This document shows, one piece after another, positions 1,112-38,946 of a stretch of 64,000 nucleotides of DNA. The first letter of the stretch is position 1; each line of letters opens with the position of its first letter. Under the pieces are notes generated by a model. That model was not told the origin of the DNA. It was given only the letters and a program-made list of their open reading frames with translations, and did not search any database. A program made the translations under genes and the position numbers. The stretch lies in the NCBI RefSeq assembly GCF_051903065.1, contig NZ_CP178438.1, one strand, 5' to 3'. Source of the stretch: Escherichia coli. Lineage in GTDB: Bacteria; Pseudomonadota; Gammaproteobacteria; Enterobacterales; Enterobacteriaceae.

Positions 1112-1179
1112 GAATCCTCCTCTACTCGTAACAGGCACCTTTGCCTACCTTGTATTAACTTTGTTGCGAGGCCGAGTTT

Positions 1180-1509
1180 ATGAAACGCCACTCCACGCTT
1201 TTTCTTTTCACCCTGCTCACGCTGACCACCGTACCGGCCCAGGCCGATATTATCGACGACACCATTGGCAATATTCAGCAGGCGATTAACGACGCTTATA
1301 ACCCTGACCGTGGGCGAGACTATGAAGATTCGCGCGACGATGGCTGGCAGCGTGAAGTGAGCGACGATCGGCGCAGACAATATGACGACCGCCGCCGCCA
1401 GTTTGAAGATCGCCGCAGGCAGCTGGACGATCGCCAACGTCAGCTTGATCAGGAGCGTCGGCAACTGGAGGATGAAGAGCGGAGAATGGAAGATGAGTAT
1501 GGGCGGTGA
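1180..1509 (+). CDS. yjdP: YjdP-like small secreted protein with signal peptide and Asp/Arg-rich tandem repeats
   Basis: 109 aa; N-terminal signal peptide ending in AQA; repeated D-R-R-R-Q motifs; position between the kinase gene and phnP matches yjdP. Confidence 0.75.
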   Translation: MKRHSTLFLFTLLTLTTVPAQADIIDDTIGNIQQAINDAYNPDRGRDYEDSRDDGWQREVSDDRRRQYDDRRRQFEDRRRQLDDRQRQLDQERRQLEDEERRMEDEYGR

Positions 1510-1514
1510 GGTAG

Positions 1515-1650
1515 GCTCGGGTGCTGGCATCGCCCCTCACCCTAACCCTCTCCCCAAAGGGGCGAGGGGACCGATGGTGCACGGGGTGATTTTCTCCCTC
1601 TCCCTGTGGGAGAGGGCCGGGATGAGGGCATCAGCGCGCACATTCTCCCC
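1515..1650. repeat. GC-rich tandem hairpin element (boxC-like) in the yjdP-phnP intergenic region
   Basis: Two adjacent imperfect palindromes (ccctctcccc..ggggcgaggg and ccctctccc..gggagaggg); a second copy of the 25-bp core is at 28975-29005. Confidence 0.5.
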
Positions 1651-1652
1651 CA

Positions 1653-2411
1653 TCACGCCACCCCAATCTCCATCCCATCAAACCCCGCCTCAAACCCTGA
1701 CGGCAGCGCGTTCTCCATCAGCCACGCATCAAACTGGTGGCTGATATGGGTCAGAATCACCCGTGGCGAGCGGATAACCTGATTCAGCGCAAGCACGGTA
1801 TTTAAATCACAGTGATTACGCGGTGCATCCTCGCGCGGCGGGTGGCTGCAATCAATCACCATTACCTGTAGCTGATTATTGTGTAAAAATTTCAGCGTTT
1901 TTTCCGGCAGGCCTGCGGTGTCAGACAGCCACGCCACCCGGCTGTGTGCCGTTTCCAGCAGATAACCGAAGGTCAGTTTTGAGTGGTTTAGCGGCAGCGG
2001 TGTCACCTGCAACCCCTGCAAATCGAACACCACAAACGGTTCCACCGTGTGGCTGAAATCAAGCAGGCCCGGATGTTTAAACAGATCGTCGCAGCCCTGT
2101 TCATCCGGCGGGCCGTAGACCGGGATCGAACCGCCCACGCCCCAGCGCAGCGGAAACAGTCCCTGAACGTGATCCATATGATAATGCGTCAGCAAAAACT
2201 GCTGGAACGATCCTGGCGACCAGCGATCGGTGAGATCGTGCAGCCCGGCGTCGATCAGGGTGACAGCCTCGTTAAACTTCACTACGCCGCTGCACGGCTG
2301 GCGGCGATACTGCGGCGAGCGTCGCGCTCGTGCGCAGGCCGCGCACTCGCAGCCCCATGCCGGAACGCCCTGTGCGCCGCCGGTGCCCGTGAGCGTGAGG
2401 GTCAGGCTCAT
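1653..2411 (-). CDS. phnP: Phosphonate metabolism phosphodiesterase PhnP (metallo-beta-lactamase fold)
   Basis: 252 aa; HYHMDH metal-binding motif; last gene of the phn operon by order. Confidence 0.93.
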
Positions 2412-2412
2412 G

Positions 2413-2847
2413 TTACAGCGCCTTGGTGAAGCGGAAATGGCTCTGCTCGTAGCCTTCGCGCAGATAGAAACGGTGCGCGTCGTGGCGCTTCACGTTGGTG
2501 GAAAGCTCGGTCATTTCGGCCCCGGCCTGGCGGGCTTCTTCTTCTGCCCACGCCAGTAACTTACTGCCGACGTTCAGACCGCGCGCCTGCGGCATCACCA
2601 CCAGCTCCTGAATTTCGCCGATCCAGTTGACATGATGCAGATGAAACTGCAAATGCAGGCCGATCATGCCAACAACTTCGCCATCCAGCAGCGCCAGATG
2701 GTAGCGCATGTTTGGGTCACGCAGGTTGGCGTTAAAGCCCACGCGAAACGCGTGATGGTCAAACTCCGCCTGTTTTAGCTCACAAATCAGCGCGTAAACC
2801 GCGTCGGTGTCGTACTGCGTGGCCGGGCGAAGCTCACAAGCAGGCAT
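2413..2847 (-). CDS. phnO: Aminoalkylphosphonate N-acetyltransferase PhnO
   Basis: 144 aa GNAT-type protein; operon position. Confidence 0.92.
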
Positions 2848-3391
2848 GGTGTTTCTCCTTCTGATGAATCAGCGTCAGCAGCGTGTCGACCGACTGGCGC
2901 AGGCTGCCGTCATTATTGAGCGTATGGCAATCCTGTGGAGTATAGCGGGCAGCGCGCGCCAGCCGGGCGTTAATTTCACTGGCGTTTTCACGACCACGGT
3001 TTTCCAGGCGCTGGCGCAGGATCTCCGGCGACACCTGTAAGCAGATGGGCAGCAGCGCCGATGCATAGCGTGCCCGCGCCTGCGGCAGATGGGCGCGTGA
3101 GCCGTTGACCAGCACGTCGAATCCGGCGTGCAGCCAGAGATCAATTTCCAGCCCGACGCCGTAATAGTAGCCGTTAGCATGCCAGCTTAACGCGAAGAGT
3201 TGCTGACCTGCACGGGCAAAAAACTCCTGCTCGCTCAGGGCGATATGGTTTTCACTTCCGGCGCTGGCATCGCGCGTGATGTAGCGATGCGCCACCAGTA
3301 ACTGAGTTTGTTCCCGCAGGCGGAGTTCCGCCAGCAGGCTATCTTTCCCGGAGCCGGACGGCCCCATTAACCAAATCAGTTTTCCCGTCAT
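2834..3391 (-). CDS. phnN: Ribose 1,5-bisphosphate phosphokinase PhnN
   Basis: 185 aa; P-loop GPSGSGKDS; overlaps phnO by 14 nt. Confidence 0.92.
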
Positions 3392-4527
3392 CAGAACACC
3401 CTTTTACCCTGACGCCAGACGTGGTCGATATGAATATGATTGCCCTTGCGATGCGCCAGCACCAGGTCGGCGCGTTTGCCCTCGCCAATCACCCCGCGAT
3501 CCTGGAGATTAAGCGCCTGCGCTGGATTTTTAGTCACCAGCTTCACCGCCTGCGGCAGCGTAAAGCGGTTGCTCTGGTCATCGGCGACGCGGAACGCCGC
3601 ATCCAGCAGGCTGGCGGGGTAGTAGTCGGAAGAGAGGATATCCAGCAGGCCAAGCTGCGCCAGTTCACTGGCCGCCACGTTGCCGGAGTGCGAACCGCCG
3701 CGCACAATATTCGGCGCGCCCATCAGCACGTTCATGCCATGCTTGCGCGAGGCTTCCGCCGCTTCGAACGTAGTGGGAAATTCGGCGATCACGCTGCCAA
3801 GCTGGTGGGATTCGGCAACATGGGCGTGGGTGGCGTCATCGTGGCTGGCGAGCGCAATGTGTCGCGCGCGGCACATTGCGGCGATGGATTCGCGATTTGG
3901 CTGCGACCAGCGTGCAGCAAGCGCCAGCTGTTCCTCTTCATACTGCTGCATCTGCGCGTCGGTGAGCGAGTATTTGCCCTGATAATATTCGCGATACTTC
4001 TCGCGGTTGGCGAACTGGCGCTGGCCCGGCGAGTGGTCCATCAGCGATACCAGCGTCACCGGCTCGCGCTGCACCAGTTTTTCAAACAGCGGCAGCGTGG
4101 TGTGGTGCGGCAGTTCGCAGCGCAGGTGCAGACGGTGCTCGGCGCGGTTGACGCCGCGTTTCTGCGTCTCTTCGATGGCGTTGATCATCTTCTCCAGATT
4201 CTCCAGCCGATCGCCGCCGTCGCGCACGTCGCCAATCGCCACGGCATCCAGTACGGTGGTGATGCCGCTCGCCACCATCAGCGCATCGTGGCTGCTCATC
4301 GCCGAGTGGGCGGGCCAGTCAACTTTCGGGCGCGGGGTGAAGAATTTATCCAGATTATCGGTATGCAGCTCAATCAGGCCCGGCAGCAGCCAGCCGCCTT
4401 CGCCGTCCATCGCCTCCGGCAGGCGGCTCTGGCTTTCGGCAAAGGCGCGGATTTCGCCGTCCTGCACCTCCAGTGAACCGCTTACCACCTCGTTTTCCAG
4501 CACCAATTTGACGTTATTGATAATCAT
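3391..4527 (-). CDS. phnM: C-P lyase pathway triphosphoribosyl-phosphonate diphosphohydrolase PhnM (amidohydrolase family)
   Basis: 378 aa; operon position. Confidence 0.92.
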
Positions 4528-5204
4528 GAAGAGGCTCCCATTGGGTGCAGGCGGTCGGCAACGTCATTACGTACGGCTTCGTCATGGAAGATGCCGACAA
4601 TGGCTGCGCCGCGGGCTTTGGCTTCGCGGATCAGTTCCACCACCGCGGCGCTGTTTTTGGCGTCCAGCGAGGCGGTAGGTTCGTCGAGCAGCAGAATGGG
4701 GTAGTCGACGATAAAGCCGCGGGCGATGTTGACGCGCTGCTGTTCGCCGCCGGAGAAGGTCGATGGTGCCAGGTGCCACAGGCGTTCCGGCACGTTCAGG
4801 CGGGTGAGCAGACGCGCGGCTTTAGCAGCGCAGGCTTCACGCGGTACGCCGGTATCGAGCAGCGGCTGCATTACTACTTCCAGCGCCGAAATGCGCGGGA
4901 TAACTCGCAGAAACTGGCTCACCCAGCCAACGGTGGTTTTGCGGATTTCCACCACTTTGCGCGCTGGCGCGGTGACCAGATCGACCCATTCGTCACCGTG
5001 TTTGATCTGGATTTGCCCTTCGTCGGGCAGATAGTTGGCGTACAGCGAGCGCAGCAGGGTTGATTTGCCGCTGCCGGAGTGGCCGTGGAGCACCACGCAT
5101 TCGCCCGCGTTGACGGTGAGTGAGGCGCGTTGTAAGACGGGCAGGCGCACGCCGTTTTGCTGATGCAGGATGAAGGTTTTACTGACGTTTTGTACGTTAA
5201 TCAT
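4524..5204 (-). CDS. phnL: C-P lyase ATP-binding subunit PhnL
   Basis: 226 aa from [11 protein letters not shown]; Walker [10 protein letters not shown]. The track ORF (432 aa) is an upstream in-frame extension through a REP element and was trimmed. Confidence 0.9.
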
Positions 5205-5224
5205 TTTTCGCCTCGTGGTTCGGG

Positions 5225-5310
<86 letters not shown>

Positions 5311-5314
5311 CGGC

Positions 5315-6073
5315 TCAATTCTGCAAAACCGATGACACCAGCAGCTGTGTATACGGATGATGCGGGTCGTCGAGCACGCGGTCGGTTAACCCACTCTCCA
5401 CCACTTGCCCCTGCTTCATCACCAGCAAACGGTCCGCCAGCAGGCGGGCGACGCCTAAATCGTGGGTGACAATCACCACCGCGAGGTTCAGCTCCACCAC
5501 CAGGCCGCGCAGCAGGTCGAGCAGGCGCGCCTGCACCGACACATCCAGCCCGCCGGTTGGCTCGTCCATAAATACCAGCTTCGGATGCGTCACCAGGTTG
5601 CGGGCAATCTGCAAACGCTGCTGCATGCCGCCGGAAAAGGTGGTCGGCAGGTCGTCGATCCGGTTGGCGGGAATTTCCACCTCTTCCAGCCACTTCTGCG
5701 CGGTGGCGCGAATATCGCCGTAATGACGTGCCCCGGTCGCCATCAGCCGCTCGCCGATATTGCCGCCTGCCGACACCTGGCGGCGCAGGCCGTCGAGCGG
5801 ATGCTGATGCACCACGCCCCATTCGGTGCGCAGCAGGCGACGGCGGTCGGCCTCGCTCATGCCATAGAGGGAACGGTTTTCATAGTGAATCTCCCCCTGC
5901 TGCGGCGTCAGACGCGCGGAAATTGATTTCAGCAGCGTGGTCTTCCCGGAGCCGGATTCCCCGACAATGCCCAGCACTTCCCCCGGCCATAAATCAAAAG
6001 AGACATCGCTAAAGCCTTTGCCCGGCGCGTAAAGGTGGGTCAGGTTATTGACCGAAAGTAACGGTTGATTCAT
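5315..6073 (-). CDS. phnK: C-P lyase ATP-binding subunit PhnK
   Basis: 252 aa from [11 protein letters not shown]; ABC ATPase motifs ([17 protein letters not shown]); start overlaps phnJ stop. Confidence 0.92.
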
Positions 6074-13042: not shown

Positions 13043-13104
13043 GATGGTGACCTCAGTTAAGAGAAGCCAGTTAAGTGTAGTTCGAAATTTATACAGATGA
13101 GAGG

Positions 13105-13665
<561 letters not shown>

Positions 13666-13676
13666 TCACAATACAA

Positions 13677-14012
13677 TCAGTTCTTTTTCACAAACTCAGA
13701 TTTCAGTTTCATCGGACCAAAACCGTCGATTTTGCAATCGATGTTATGGTCGCCTTCAACCAGGCGGATATTTTTCACTTTGGTGCCAATTTTCAGCATC
13801 GAAGAGCTACCTTTCACCTTCAGATCTTTAATGATGGTAACGCTGTCGCCGTCAGCCAGCAGATTGCCGTTAGCATCTTTAACGATCAGCTCGTCGCTTT
13901 CCTGTGCAGGTTCTGCGTCGTTCCATTCGTAGGCACATTCCGGGCAGATGTACATGCCGTTATCTTCGTAAGTGTATTCGGAGTTGCATTTTGGGCAGTG
14001 TGGTAATGACAT
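13677..14012 (-). CDS. yjdM: Zinc-ribbon protein YjdM (PhnA)
   Basis: 111 aa from [30 protein letters not shown]; two CxxC pairs; track ORF is a 5-prime extension into the BIME array. Confidence 0.9.
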
Positions 14013-32963: not shown

Positions 32964-34610
32964 TTACTTAGTGCAGTTCGCGCACTGTTTGTTGACGATT
33001 TGCTGGAAGAAGTCGTTACCTTTGTCATCGACCAGGATAAACGCCGGGAAATCTTCTACTTCGATTTTCCAGATAGCTTCCATACCCAGCTCCGGATAAG
33101 CGACGCATTCCAGATGCTTGATGCTCTGCTGCGCCAGTACCGCCGCCGGACCGCCGATGCTACCGAGGTAGAAGCCGCCGTGTTTATGACACGCGTCGGT
33201 AACCTGCTGACTGCGGTTACCTTTCGCTAGCATGATCATGCTGCCGCCGTGGGATTGCAGCAGATCCACGTAGGAGTCCATACGACCTGCGGTGGTTGGG
33301 CCAAGTGAACCTGATGGATAACCGGCAGGGGTTTTCGCCGGACCCGCGTAGTAGATCGGGTGATCTTTGATGTACTGCGGAAGTTCTTTACCGGCGTCAA
33401 TCAGCTCTTTCAGCTTGGCGTGTGCAATATCTCGGCCCACGATAATGGTGCCGGTGAGCGACAAACGGGTGGATACCGGATATTGCGAAAGCTGGGCGAG
33501 GATCTCTTTCATCGGGCGGTTAAGGTCGACCTTCACCGCTTCGCCTTCACCGGCCTGGCGCAGTTCTTGTGGAATGTACTGACCTGGATTGTGTTCCAGT
33601 TTTTCGATCCAGATACCTTCGCGGTTGATTTTCGCTTTAATGTTACGGTCAGCGGAGCAGGAGACGCCCATGCCTACCGGGCAGGATGCGCCGTGACGTG
33701 GCAGACGGATAACGCGAATGTCGTGCGCGAAGTATTTACCGCCAAACTGCGCGCCAAGACCGAGTTTCTGGGCCTCTTCCAGCAGTTCCTGTTCCAGCTG
33801 GACATCGCGGAACGCCTGACCATGTTCGTTCCCTTCCGTCGGCAGTTCATCGTAATAGTGAGCGCTTGCTAACTTGACGGTTTTCAGGTTGGTTTCCGCA
33901 GACGTACCGCCAATCACAAACGCGATATGGTACGGCGGGCAGGCTGCAGTACCGAGGGTACGCATTTTCTCGACGAGGAAGTTTTTCAGTTTGCCGGGAG
34001 TCAGCAGGGCTTTGGTTTCCTGGTAGAGATAGGTTTTGTTGGCAGAGCCGCCGCCTTTCGCAACGCAAAGGAATTTGTACTCATCGCCATCTACCGCGTA
34101 CAGGTCGATTTGTGCAGGCAGGTTAGTGCCGGTGTTGACCTCTTTGTACATGTCCAGCGCCGCGTTTTGCGAGTAGCGCAGGTTATCCTCGATATAGGTG
34201 TTATAGACGCCTTTCGACAGCGCTTCTTCATCACCGCCACCGGTCCACACGCGCTGGCCTTTTTTACCGACGATGATCGCGGTGCCGGTATCCTGGCAGG
34301 TCGGCAGCACGCCTTTGGCGGCGATTTCGGAGTTTCTTAAGAATTGCAGTGCCACGTACTTGTCGTTTTCGCTGGCTTCTGGATCGTGAAGAATAGCCGC
34401 AACCTGTTTCTGGTGTGCCGGACGGAGCATGAAAGAAGCGTCGTGAAAGGCTTGCTGCGCCAGCAGGGTCAGGGCTTCTGGTTCCACTTTCAGGATGGTT
34501 TCGCCGTCGAAGTCGGCAACGCTAACGTAATCGGAAGTGAGTAGATAGTATTCGGTATTGTCTTTCCCCATCGGGAAAGGTGCCTGGTAGATAAAGGGTT
34601 TGTTTGACAT
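32964..34610 (-). CDS. fumB: Class I (Fe-S) fumarate hydratase FumB
   Basis: 548 aa; downstream of dcuB on the same strand. Confidence 0.93.
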
Positions 34611-34687: not shown

Positions 34688-36028
34688 TTATAAGAACCCG
34701 TACATCGCGGCGAAGATCCAGCCGAAGACGCACGATACGCTCACACCAATCAACCCCGGCAGAATAAAGCTGTGGTTGATGACGAAGCGACCGATGTGGG
34801 TGGTGCCGGAACGGTCAAACTGAATCGCTGCCAGATCGCTCGGATAAGTCGGCAGGATGTAATAACCGTAGCAAGCCGGTGCTGAAGCCACGATGTATGC
34901 CGGATCAACGCCGATCGCCAGCGCGACCGGAACAATCGCCGCCAGCGCCGCAGCCTGAGAGTTTACAAACTTGGAAACCAGCAGCAGAACAATGGCATAG
35001 GCCCACGGATACTCTTTCACCATTTCACCCAGTACGCCCTGAATTTCAGACATATGCGCACCGAACATGGTTTCTGCCATCCATGCGATACCGTACACCG
35101 CCACGATGGCGATCATACCGGAACGGAAGACTTCGTTTTTTGAGATAGACGCGGGATTGGTTTTGGTCAGGATAATAATCAGCGCCCCGGTCAGCAGCAT
35201 AAACATCTGAATAACCAGTACCATCGACAGCGGTTTGCCGCCGAAGGATGGACGCAGGTCCGAATCAGCACCAAGAAGTGCGACTACAGCGATTGCCCCG
35301 AGGAAAATCCACATTGCCAGCCAGTTGCTTTTCGGCAGTTTTTTATCGAGCAGCGTCGCGGTATCACCGTAAACATACTCACGGTTTTCCGGTACTGAGA
35401 TGAATTTCTGGAACTCTTCGTCTTTATCCAGATCTTTACCGCGGAACCAGCTGAAGATACCGATCGCCAGGATACCGATTAACGTCGATGGAATGGTGAT
35501 TGCCAGCAGGTCGAGGAACTCAAGATGGCGACCATCAAAGGTGACATTACCCAGCATTGCAACCAGAGACACGACCGCAACCGACACCGGACTGGCGATA
35601 ATCCCCATCTGTGCACCGATAGAACTTGCCGCCATCGGACGTTCCGGACGGATGTTGTTCTTAATGGCGACGTCGTAGATGATCGGCAGAATGGTGTAAA
35701 CCACATGACCCGTACCGCAAAGAATGGTCAGTGTACAGGTCACAAACGGCGCGACAATTGAGACATATTTCGGGTTGCGGCGCAGCAGCTTCTCGGCAAT
35801 TTGCAGCATGACATCAAGACCGCCCGAAGCTTGCAAGGTCGCCGATGCCGCCACCACCGCAATGATAACCAGCATGACATCAACCGGTGGTTTACCTGGC
35901 TGAAGGTGGAAGACGAAGACCAGAATGACCAGACCGATACCGCCTAATAAACCCAGCGCGATACCACCCTTTCTGGCACCATAAAACAGACATATCAGTA
36001 TTATGATAAGTTGGATAGTAAATAACAT
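34688..36028 (-). CDS. dcuB: Anaerobic C4-dicarboxylate antiporter DcuB
   Basis: 446 aa polytopic membrane protein. Confidence 0.93.
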
Positions 36029-36598
36029 GTGTGAACCCTCGCGATAATCCTATTTAAATTTTTGCTGAATAGATCACAGTCACGTTCTGTTTTGTATGAA
36101 CTGTTTTCAGAGCCTGACTAAATATCCGTTTGGTCGTTACCGGCTTTAGCAAATACCTCACAGTGAATATTGGCTGATTAAAGCAGCGGCAAATTTATGC
36201 ACTGTGATAAGCGGCTTTTTCAGAGAGAAAGACTCTCTGGCGATGGGTTTATAGTTTGTACTGCGCAGATGTTAATGTTTTGTTTGCTGTTATCTTATTG
36301 ATATTTATCGGTCTATTTTTTGTTCTCAGGGCAGATATCATTAGGTTTATAGATTAATCTGATCTACCCATTTGTGGGTAAAAATACACATAATGCGGGT
36401 GACATAATAGTTAATTAACTTTTGTTAGCGTTTTGAAATTAAAAACACCGTTCACCGGAAGAGATATTAATTTTTAGCGATGATGGAGGGATAATTATAT
36501 TTGATCTGGCACAAGTTTTACTGATGAAGGATGTAACTTGTGCCAGGGGTATTTTGCATTACGGTAATAATTATTACTTACAGATAACCAGCGATCCG
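36029..36598 (-). promoter_or_regulatory. Long AT-rich dcuB control region
   Basis: About 570 bp with no convincing ORF; contains an FNR-like TTGAT-N4-ATC half-site pair near 36298-36310. Confidence 0.45.
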
Positions 36599-37318
36599 TT
36601 ATTGGCAATATTGTTTCAGTAGTGAGTAGTGTTCTGCCTGAATACGGTAACGGTAAACCGGACGCCCCGTGACGCCATAATGGATACTGGTGAACAAGAT
36701 GTGGCAGTTGACCAGCCAGATGAGGTATTTACGGCAGGAAACACGCGAGATGTTAACCTCGTTAGCCAGCTCGTCGGTTGAAAACTCATAGTCCTGATGC
36801 GCGTCAATCCACTGGCACAGCGTGCGTAACGTCTGCGGCGTTAAGCCTTTTGGCAAGCGACGAGGATCCTGCTCGTTGGAGCTGCTGCCGTGGATTAACT
36901 GATCAAGCTCGGCCTGGTCATAATACTGATGTTTTTCCAGCGCCATTTTCTTTTGCCGCCAGCCGGTGAGCGCCTCTTCAAAGCGGGAAGCCTGGAAGGG
37001 TTTGATCAGGTAATCCACGACACCGTAATGCAGCGAATCTTTAATGGTTGCCGCATCGGCTGCGGAGGAGATGACAATCACATCACTTTTGCAACGCGCG
37101 TTATGCAGGACAGGCAGTAAATCGAGCCCGTTCTCTTTTTGCATATAGATATCGAGCAATATCAGGTCGATAGGCGTATCGCTATTGAAGATAATCTCTT
37201 TGGCTTTCTCCAGCGTCGAGGCTGTTCCACAGCATTGAAAGCCTGGGATTTGTGCTACGTATCGGCGATTCAGCTCCGCGACCATTGCGTCGTCATCGAT
37301 AATTAATACATTGATCAT
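36599..37318 (-). CDS. dcuR: Response regulator DcuR
   Basis: 239 aa; receiver domain plus C-terminal HTH. Confidence 0.93.
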   Translation of the reverse strand: MINVLIIDDDAMVAELNRRYVAQIPGFQCCGTASTLEKAKEIIFNSDTPIDLILLDIYMQKENGLDLLPVLHNARCKSDVIVISSAADAATIKDSLHYGVVDYLIKPFQASRFEEALTGWRQKKMALEKHQYYDQAELDQLIHGSSSNEQDPRRLPKGLTPQTLRTLCQWIDAHQDYEFSTDELANEVNISRVSCRKYLIWLVNCHILFTSIHYGVTGRPVYRYRIQAEHYSLLKQYCQ

Positions 37319-38946
37319 CTGTTCGACCTCTCCCCGTCCCAGGGTATCTGGACAAAAAATTGTGTGAAAATCCCGGGTTCCGATTCCACGGCGATGCTGC
37401 CGCCGAGATTTTCTACCTGTTGTTTGACAAGTGCTAAACCGACGCCTCGCTCGCTTCCTTTTGTCGAGACACCTTTGTCAAAAATGTGATCGATTTTGTC
37501 GGGTGCGATCCCCGGTCCATCATCGTTAACTTCGCAGTGCAGCCAGCCGTGACGGTAGTGCAATGTTACGCTAATTTCGCCACCGGGTTCCGGCCCTAAT
37601 GCTTCCAGCGCGTTTTCTATCAGATTTCCCAATGTGGTAATCAGCGTCGCGACCTGGTCCTCACTGCCGCTGTCTGGCAGCTGGCTTTCACTGTTTAAAA
37701 TCAGCGTATGGCCTAAATCGGTCGCGCGGTTAATCTTGCTGATTAAAAAACCAGCGATAACCGGAGATTTGATCTTACCCAGCAGAGAGCCAATCTCTTC
37801 CTGATAGTTATTGGCTGTTTTGAGAATGTAATCTTCCAACTGCTTATAACTCTTCAGATGCAATAATCCGAGAATCACATGCAATTTATTCATAAATTCG
37901 TGGGATCGTTCACGAAGTGCATCAGCATAGTTGACCAGACCGTCGAGTCGCTGCATCAGTTTACGAACTTCAGTTTTGTCCCTGAAGGTTGAAATGGCAC
38001 CGATGATAACGCCATTACTGCGCACCGGAACGGTGTTGATCAGTAATAGCCGATCTTTAATCGTAATCTCTTCGTCGCGGCGCGGCGTACCGTCGCGTAA
38101 CACTTCCGAGACATCTACCACCTGTGACCATGAGTGGCTGAGCGTCGACAGTTTCTCATCGTCCTGCGACTTACGGTAATTCAGCAATTCTTGTGCGGCA
38201 TCGTTGATCAGCGTGACCTCGCCGCGATCGTCCACGGCAACGACGCCTTCTTTGATAGACTGCAACATGGCCTGGCGTTGCTCAAACAGCGTGGAGATTT
38301 CGTAGGGTTCCAGGCCGAAAAGGATTTTTTTCAGTACTTTAACCAGAATGCAGGTGCCAATCAGTCCGACCAGCATGCCAAATAATACTGACCAGATAAT
38401 GCTCCAGCGACTGTCATTGATCTGTTGGGTCACGCGGCTTAACTCAAGGCCGATCGCCACCACGCCAATTTGTTTATGATTTTCATCGTAGATGGGGGTA
38501 AATACGCGTAAAGCCTGCGCCAGAAAACCGCGATTGATAGCGACATTTTCTTCGCCATTCAGCGCTTTAAGGATGTCATCACCTTTAAATGGCTGACCAA
38601 TACGCTGGGCTTCAGGATGCGAGTAGCGAAGACTTTGCATATCGGTAACGACAATAAACAGCAGATCGTTGCGTTTGCGCACGGCTTCCGCGATGGCCTG
38701 GATGCCGCTCTCCTGCGGTTTTTTCTGCAAGCCCTGACGGATTTCCGGCGAGTCGGCGAGAGTACGCGCCACTGCCAGTGCCTTGTTGGCTAGCCCGTCT
38801 CGCGTCATATCACTGATTTGCGAGAAGTAAATCAGATGCACCACCAATAGCACCGAGAACAGTACTGCGCTGACCATTAAGATCACAGTGGTACTCAATT
38901 TCATCGGACGTTTGCGTAACATGCGGTAGGGCAATGAATGTCTCAT
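37315..38946 (-). CDS. dcuS: C4-dicarboxylate sensor histidine kinase DcuS
   Basis: 543 aa; two membrane helices flanking a periplasmic domain, PAS and kinase domains; overlaps dcuR start by 4 nt. Confidence 0.93.
   Translation of the reverse strand: MRHSLPYRMLRKRPMKLSTTVILMVSAVLFSVLLVVHLIYFSQISDMTRDGLANKALAVARTLADSPEIRQGLQKKPQESGIQAIAEAVRKRNDLLFIVVTDMQSLRYSHPEAQRIGQPFKGDDILKALNGEENVAINRGFLAQALRVFTPIYDENHKQIGVVAIGLELSRVTQQINDSRWSIIWSVLFGMLVGLIGTCILVKVLKKILFGLEPYEISTLFEQRQAMLQSIKEGVVAVDDRGEVTLINDAAQELLNYRKSQDDEKLSTLSHSWSQVVDVSEVLRDGTPRRDEEITIKDRLLLINTVPVRSNGVIIGAISTFRDKTEVRKLMQRLDGLVNYADALRERSHEFMNKLHVILGLLHLKSYKQLEDYILKTANNYQEEIGSLLGKIKSPVIAGFLISKINRATDLGHTLILNSESQLPDSGSEDQVATLITTLGNLIENALEALGPEPGGEISVTLHYRHGWLHCEVNDDGPGIAPDKIDHIFDKGVSTKGSERGVGLALVKQQVENLGGSIAVESEPGIFTQFFVQIPWDGERSNR

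Follow-up and report, generated by a model that had tools for sequence, protein, structure and literature searches.

The dcuR–dcuB gap of Escherichia coli raises the question of what 570 bp of DNA between two genes are for, and whether they conceal a gene of their own in addition to regulator binding sites. We addressed this question in a stretch of 64,000 nucleotides of chromosomal DNA (hereafter, the window; contig NZ_CP178438.1), in which positions 36029–36598 on the minus strand form the complete gap from the dcuR stop codon to the dcuB start codon according to open reading frames and RefSeq annotation. A sequence-only reading had described a 570-bp AT-rich non-coding stretch upstream of dcuB, and this description is borne out by the open reading frames, by RefSeq, which places no feature inside the gap either in K-12 or in a strain that is 100% identical over it, and by a G+C content of 0.32–0.40 compared to ~0.52 in the flanking genes. 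The genes around the gap, whose identity is supported directly or by published data, are arranged as follows.

32964–34610, minus strand: fumB
34688–36028, minus strand: dcuB, start codon at 36028–36026
36029–36598, minus strand: dcuR–dcuB intergenic region, 570 bp, proposed dcuB-fumB promoter region and 5′ leader
36599–37318, minus strand: dcuR
37315–38946, minus strand: dcuS

We propose, with a probability of about 0.9, that the gap is where transcription of the E. coli dcuB-fumB operon is controlled and its 5′ leader encoded, a region already known. As well as being the main C4-dicarboxylate transporter under anaerobic conditions, DcuB acts as a co-sensor of DcuS and as a gut colonization factor. 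According to the proposed scheme, dcuB would be transcribed mainly from position 36375 (minus strand) by a promoter that has a TATTTT −10 hexamer and lacks a −35 element; phosphorylated DcuR would activate this promoter from a near-invariant AT-rich block at −72 to −27, FNR would activate it from an unusually distant site at −132.5, and NarL would repress it at a 7-2-7 site lying over the start point, so that the dcuB mRNA would begin with a 347-nt leader. The general expectation of the sequence-only reading, that the region integrates anaerobic and C4-dicarboxylate signals, was right, with FNR responding to oxygen, DcuR to C4-dicarboxylates and NarL to nitrate. Rather than a single start next to the dcuB ATG and an absence of conserved elements, the region has its main start 347 nt upstream of dcuB and several conserved blocks.

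Of 5426 complete E. coli genomes, 5414 matched an 851-bp query around the gap, one of them with 100% identity. Relative to K-12 MG1655 the 570 bp carry two substitutions (36457 and 36337) and no indels, so published K-12 positions transfer exactly (window = U00096.3 − 4,312,716; U00096.3 = U00096.2 + 1977). The K-12 dcuB-fumB promoter region (EcoCyc/RegulonDB; Golby 1998, Abo-Amer 2004, Janausch 2004, Myers 2013) is thus the same locus, with no substantive difference: its FNR site, sigma70 peak and derived start map straight onto the window. What is new relative to the curated K-12 region is a map of conservation across genera, the reading of a gut-adaptive SNP as a −10 up-mutation, and a leader hairpin with a candidate anti-Shine-Dalgarno (anti-SD) element.

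Conservation of the gap across genera

We scanned species-representative genomes with DcuB and recovered 80 loci, among which dcuR lay directly upstream of dcuB in five genera only, with gaps of the following lengths.

Escherichia: 570 bp
Salmonella: 717–729 bp
Citrobacter: 552–754 bp
Trabulsiella: about 630 bp
Intestinirhabdus: 910 bp

In an alignment of 25 of these gaps, we took as conserved those blocks in which the 20 sequences from outside Escherichia are at least 85% identical to E. coli. The blocks, numbered from the derived transcription start, are listed below; the remainder of the leader is just 35–41% identical to E. coli.

−197 to −190: AATTATTA, palindrome core
−132 to −125: AGATCAAA, right half of the FNR site
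−72 to −57 and −55 to −39: TGTTTTTAATTTCAAA and CGCTAACAAAAGTTAAT, DcuR block
−15 to −4: TGTGTATTTTTA, which holds the −10 hexamer
+129 to +137: CCCATCGCC, leader block
+332 to +341: TCGCGAGGGT, Shine-Dalgarno block

None of the blocks was found upstream of dcuB where dcuR is not adjacent (Klebsiella, Raoultella, Proteus, Serratia, Pectobacterium and others), and these genera therefore could not extend the comparison.

The block farthest upstream is the core, conserved across genera, of a perfect palindrome that is possibly a protein-binding site or an element of the dcuR 3′ UTR. A second inverted repeat nearby, a predicted hairpin (ΔG −18.6 kcal/mol, z −5.8), is absent outside Escherichia and shares, through its 3′ arm, sequence with the left half of the FNR site described below.

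36564–36577, minus strand: perfect palindrome GTAATAATTATTAC, at about −202 to −189
36506–36546, minus strand: hairpin with 12-bp arms CUGGCACAAGUU and AACUUGUGCCAG, dcuR 3′ UTR, Escherichia only

Promoter and regulator sites

Published in vivo work supports FNR occupancy at this locus: dcuB-fumB is one of the operons that Myers et al. (2013; PMC3688515) found to be directly activated by FNR, with one site at −132.5; their FNR ChIP-seq peak is centered at 4,347,259 (U00096.2), which is window position 36520, and their scored bound site, TTGATCTGGCACAA at 4,347,240 (U00096.2), corresponds to 36501–36514. We found an 8/10 match to the FNR consensus that coincides with this peak and scored site.

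36501–36514, minus strand: FNR site bound in vivo, TTGTGCCAGATCAA on the minus strand and TTGATCTGGCACAA on the plus strand, center 36507.5, at −132.5

The site is kept as TTG(T/C)G-N4-ATCAA in 24 of the 25 species, and it lies 124–128 bp from the −10 block across species, although the DNA between them diverges. Class II FNR promoters such as narG, frdA and dmsA, in which FNR sits at −41.5, share with dcuB an FNR-type inverted repeat, anaerobic activation and raised sigma70 occupancy; of the 23 directly activated promoters whose start is known, 19 were reported to have sites at −41.5 ± 4 (PMC3688515). No FNR-like match lies near −41.5 (about window 36416) at dcuB, which thus departs from class II geometry; in contrast to those promoters, its site is at −132.5 and a response-regulator site stands between FNR and the core promoter. 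Papers on ArcA and other FNR ChIP-exo papers do not mention dcuB in their main texts.

With the FNR site reported at −132.5, transcription would start at 36375 (36507.5 − 132.5 = 36375), a coordinate derived from a relative position and not from primary 5′-end data. The −10 hexamer that goes with this start lies within the invariant block TGTGTATTTTTA, and sigma70 ChIP signal peaks at about 4,347,120 (about window 36381), rising there about five-fold, from 58.9 under aerobic to 290.6 under anaerobic conditions (PMC3688515).

36375, minus strand: derived transcription start of dcuB
36381–36386, minus strand: −10 hexamer TATTTT of the main DcuR-dependent promoter

The −35 position reads TATTAT, a 1/6 match, and this lack of a −35 element explains why a simple sigma70 scan found nothing here. 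A promoter of this kind fits the activator-dependent type.

Further support for this promoter comes from published experimental evolution in the mouse gut, in which the dcuB/dcuR gap was a recurrent adaptive target (PMC5094792). An adaptive A→T reported there at −354 falls on window position 36382 and changes the coding strand from TATTTT to TATTAT; it is a −10 up-mutation, closer to the TATAAT consensus. Two of the adaptive insertions reported in the same study are of IS2. The insertion at −359 (window 36387) abuts the −10 hexamer on its upstream side, where IS2 hybrid promoters classically arise, and the insertion at −338 (window 36366) is within the NarL-type site described below, with dcuB expression raised anaerobically in clone 22YFP, which carries it (PMC5094792). 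An adaptive IS5 insertion falls in the leader, at about window 36146 (PMC5094792). Together, the adaptive mutations indicate that the promoter at 36375 is the one that matters in vivo.

Upstream of the −10 hexamer, a 46-bp AT-rich block takes in the place expected for a −35 element. It is near-invariant over the 25 species and contains four sense-strand WWYWAA repeats, at 36444, 36437, 36426 and 36416.

36402–36447, minus strand: putative DcuR-binding block TGTTTTTAATTTCAAAACGCTAACAAAAGTTAATTAACTATTATG, −72 to −27, 46 bp

The DcuR motif is reportedly a set of tandem (T/A)(A/T)(T/C)(A/T)AA repeats, described together with a new DcuR-responsive dcuB promoter, and the DcuR site is said to lie 27 bp upstream of the dcuB +1, as against 94 bp for dctA and 86 bp for frdA. 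The position of the block agrees with that site, 27 bp from +1, which we take to be the same element; its exact edges are those we infer from the alignment position. The other DcuR promoters (dctA, frdA) and CitB-family sites likewise have an AT-rich, WWYWAA-like array upstream of a −35-less promoter, but the dcuB site, going by the reported distances, is much nearer to +1 than those of dctA and frdA.

The start point itself is overlapped by a predicted NarL site.

36365–36380, minus strand: predicted NarL 7-2-7-type site TACCCAC-AA-ATGGGTA, −5 to +11, one mismatch to TACYYMTNNAKRRGTA

In 20 of the 25 species it shows 0–2 mismatches to TACYYMT-NN-AKRRGTA, with a perfect match in one Citrobacter, although the pattern as such occurs in the window at a frequency not above chance (3 matches versus 2.6 expected). 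Nitrate-responsive NarL reportedly represses dcuB. A NarL-type site over the start would block RNA polymerase and so fits this reported repression, and judging from its sequence and position 36365–36380 is likely the site of nitrate repression, with NarL presumed to bind at this element specifically.

Dependence of dcuB on CRP was reported earlier. No CRP site of the form TGTGA-N6-TCACA with at most two mismatches occurs in 36029–36598; the best candidate, a weak CRP-like sequence, has three mismatches in E. coli and one or two in several other genera. A proximal dcuB 5′ end (P1), near the ATG, is said to have been seen by primer extension, and a DcuR site has reportedly been placed at −359 to −400. 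Combining the latter numbering with the DcuR block mapped here puts P1 at approximately 36043–36047. The candidate −10 hexamer of P1, TAAATA, is not conserved outside Escherichia.

36063–36078, minus strand: weak CRP-like sequence TGTGATCTATTCAGCA
36043–36047, minus strand: presumed proximal 5′ end P1, approximate

The sequence-only reading had pointed to a different FNR-like half-site pair, near 36298–36310. The sequence TTGATATTTATCGG is indeed present at 36298–36311, but taking it for the FNR site was wrong: the bound site is at 36501–36514, and the noted one is 215 bp from the ChIP peak and confined to Escherichia.

36298–36311, minus strand: FNR-like site, CCGATAAATATCAA on the minus strand, +65 to +78, inside the leader

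We considered whether this sequence could be a second, functional FNR site, for example one acting on the proximal P1 promoter or serving as a roadblock. It fits 8 of 10 consensus positions, and a 9/10 version, CTGATAAATATCAA, occurs in two Escherichia relatives. Matches as good as this arise at chance frequency, however: TTGATNNNNATCAA with at most two mismatches has 50 matches in the window against 31.6 expected from shuffles, about one per 1.3–2 kb. An 8/10 match at 36298–36311 is therefore at chance level and alone is not evidence of a site. The sequence lacks conservation beyond Escherichia, Myers et al. (2013; PMC3688515) give a single FNR site for dcuB-fumB with its peak center 215 bp away, and a location ~257 bp upstream of the presumed P1 is no activating position. 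A functional FNR site here is very unlikely in our view, and the sequence is probably not functional. In one strain a 4.86-kb phage fragment is inserted at 36298–36311.

A structured leader with a candidate anti-SD element

Under the proposed reading of the gap as promoter region plus leader, transcripts from 36375 would carry 347 nt ahead of dcuB, and presumed equivalent leaders in related genera measure about 311–575 nt. Outside the two blocks listed above, the leader is conserved in length class and not in sequence; it contains a stem-loop.

36029–36375, minus strand: proposed 5′ leader of the dcuB-fumB mRNA, 347 nt, MFE z-score −2.37
36239–36247, minus strand: candidate anti-SD element CCCATCGCC, +129 to +137, invariant
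36221–36239, minus strand: stem-loop CAGAGAG-UCUUU-CUCUCUG, 7 bp, +137 to +155, ΔG −10.6 kcal/mol, z −3.7
36035–36044, minus strand: invariant block TCGCGAGGGT with the Shine-Dalgarno sequence GAGGG

The stem-loop shows covariation. Five of its seven pairs change on both sides with pairing kept (21 distinct sequences); 91% of its alignment cells are paired, compared to 84% in column shuffles, with none of 500 shuffles reaching the observed value, and sliding the 3′ partners by 1–3 columns lowers pairing to 33–65%. The invariant sequence CCCAUCGCC lies directly 5′ of the stem-loop. Both the covarying hairpin and the candidate anti-SD element appear to be undescribed.

A tentative function for these elements is translational control, in which CCCAUCGC at +129 would pair across ~190 nt with GCGAGGG and mask the ribosome-binding site. 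The covarying hairpin would then stack on the long-range helix between the anti-SD and the Shine-Dalgarno (SD) sequence, and this helix would be opened either by processing to the short P1 form or by the FNR-induced sRNA FnrS. In addition to the covariation of the stem-loop, this model draws on the mutual complementarity (with one bulged A) of the two most conserved leader blocks, whose pairing as CCCAUCGC:GCGAGGG is predicted by the E. coli MFE fold as well as by a 15-species RNAalifold consensus. Among all 9-mers of the leader, CCCAUCGC ranks first as a partner of the SD block in E. coli and in 8 of 10 other species. The pairing has an ensemble probability of 0.77–1.0 in 14 of 17 species despite diverged spacers, and the distance from the anti-SD block to the ATG is fairly constant (204–219 nt in most species).

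Several controls weaken this case. The long-range helix has no covariation behind it because the anti-SD and SD blocks are both invariant, and composition-matched shuffles of the anti-SD block gave p = 0.07. When the flanks were shuffled, anti-SD:SD pairing was still at least 0.77 in 53% of trials, and when the anti-SD was scrambled the SD was still 0.80 paired. Moreover, the predicted pairing disappears in two Citrobacter lineages that have GCCATCGCC or GCCATCACC, although their SD is unchanged. On balance we regard translational control through this pairing as possible but the less probable outcome.

The part assigned to FnrS is more doubtful still. The FnrS loop, GCGAUGGG, and the anti-SD element are perfectly complementary over 8 nt. 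In K-12 this loop, which belongs to stem-loop 1, has the sequence AAGCGAUG and then GG; it is highly conserved in Rfam RF01796, and its match to CCCAUCGC takes in the A left bulged when the element pairs with the SD. Calculated duplex energies favor FnrS (anti-SD:FnrS −13.9 versus anti-SD:SD −11.9 kcal/mol). However, an 8-nt match to this 9-nt block has a chance expectation of about 0.0035 for one sRNA and about 0.35 over roughly 100 sRNAs, and in a search for experimental support of leader or sRNA regulation we found no interaction between dcuB and an sRNA in Hfq CLASH supplements and no dcuB entries in 3′-end mapping and Cappable-seq supplements. A global duplex of FnrS and the leader was rejected, as it required unrealistic full-length pairing and was equaled by 39 of 300 shuffles; only the local 8-bp complementarity was retained. 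A complete translational switch, in which an anti-SD element beside a clamp hairpin masks the ribosome-binding site and the FnrS loop GCGAUGGG could release it, thus seems to us unlikely.

If such a switch operated, FNR would act on the main anaerobic fumarate transporter at two levels, transcription and translation, in a feed-forward loop, and if the leader elements are real, dcuB would also be under post-transcriptional control. The candidate arrangement resembles the sRNA-opened leaders of rpoS (DsrA/RprA/ArcZ) and iscR (OxyS), in which an upstream segment pairs with the ribosome-binding site (PMC11572966). In contrast to those leaders, the dcuB partners are ~190 nt apart, and the likeness rests on predicted pairing.

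Small genes and RNA elements in the gap

The sequence-only reading had further suggested a hidden small ORF or sRNA, which small-ORF conservation, terminator and Rfam checks did not support. The gap is long and AT-rich and contains mechanical ORFs of 10–37 aa on both strands, as would suit a separate small protein gene or sRNA gene. When we compared the 23 ORFs of at least 10 aa (both strands) with 24 related sequences, none was intact beyond a handful of non-Escherichia sequences, several were broken even within Escherichia, and none of the 23 had a Shine-Dalgarno sequence. A consensus scan of the gap returned neither promoter-like nor terminator-like sites. An Rfam search with E-values up to 10 gave only noise, its best score (24.7 bits, for an unrelated plastid family) falling short of the gathering score of 78, and no covariance model of a known cis-regulatory RNA (riboswitch, attenuator or thermometer) matched. 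RefSeq lists sRNAs and small proteins elsewhere in K-12 and none in the gap. A separate gene in the gap is thus extremely improbable, and we retain the reading of the region as the dcuB-fumB control region and leader.

SdhX, which we also considered, acts on fumB via the dcuB–fumB spacer, outside 36029–36598. The gap had also been called the longest non-coding stretch of the window, a rank that belongs instead to the yjdM–yjdN gap at 13043–13677 (~634 bp), which is a REP325/naRNA4 repeat array with five Rfam matches above the gathering score.

Inverted repeats between dcuR and dcuB

Two inverted repeats lie in the dcuR-proximal part of the dcuR-dcuB gap (window 36029-36598):

36564-36577, minus strand: perfect 14-bp palindrome GTAATAATTATTAC, just downstream of dcuR
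36506-36546, minus strand: perfect 12-bp inverted repeat, hairpin-forming (-18.6 kcal/mol, z -5.8)

The palindrome is located at about -195 relative to the dcuB start site, and its core, AATTATTA, is kept across genera. The hairpin, which lies about 50 nt downstream of the dcuR stop codon, is confined to Escherichia; the left half of the FNR site falls in its 3' arm. Because it lacks a U-tract, we rejected its reading as a canonical terminator. A possible role is stabilisation of the dcuSR mRNA at its 3' end.

Additional sequence in the dcuB leader

Two kinds of additional leader sequence were found in other genomes:

about 330-420 bp upstream of dcuB in comparison loci L008-L019, L023 and L029: additional leader segment of about 150-180 bp
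1138-6006 of locus L003 (NZ_CP107128.1), insertion point at window 36299-36304: inserted fragment in E. coli strain S7

The first, found in Salmonella and the Citrobacter freundii group, has no counterpart in the window, where the equivalent place would lie between 36316 and 36332. It carries a near-perfect CRP-type palindrome (e.g., cGTGATAATGATCACa) and an inverted repeat, GTAGCA...TGCTAC. The Escherichia gap lacks both this segment and any good CRP site.

The 4.86-kb insert of strain S7, present in one of 5426 genomes, is a fragment, incomplete at either end, that carries lambdoid tail and head-joining genes, with TGATAT at both junctions. It falls exactly within the FNR-like sequence (36298-36311) picked out by the sequence-only reading, and it separates dcuB from its main promoter.

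Other regions of the window

The dcuB gap had been described as the longest non-coding stretch, but it is exceeded in length by the yjdM-yjdN gap (13043-13677, about 634 bp), which is made up of a REP325 array:

within 13043-13677, minus strand: five full-length naRNA4 (RF02564) matches, 86-111 bits, ~100 bp spacing

Beyond yjdJ (39816 onward), the strain whose sequence across dcuB matches the window exactly (L002) departs from it, with an IS1 and an integrated island, while ghoST-lysS-cadBA comes next in the window, as in K-12.
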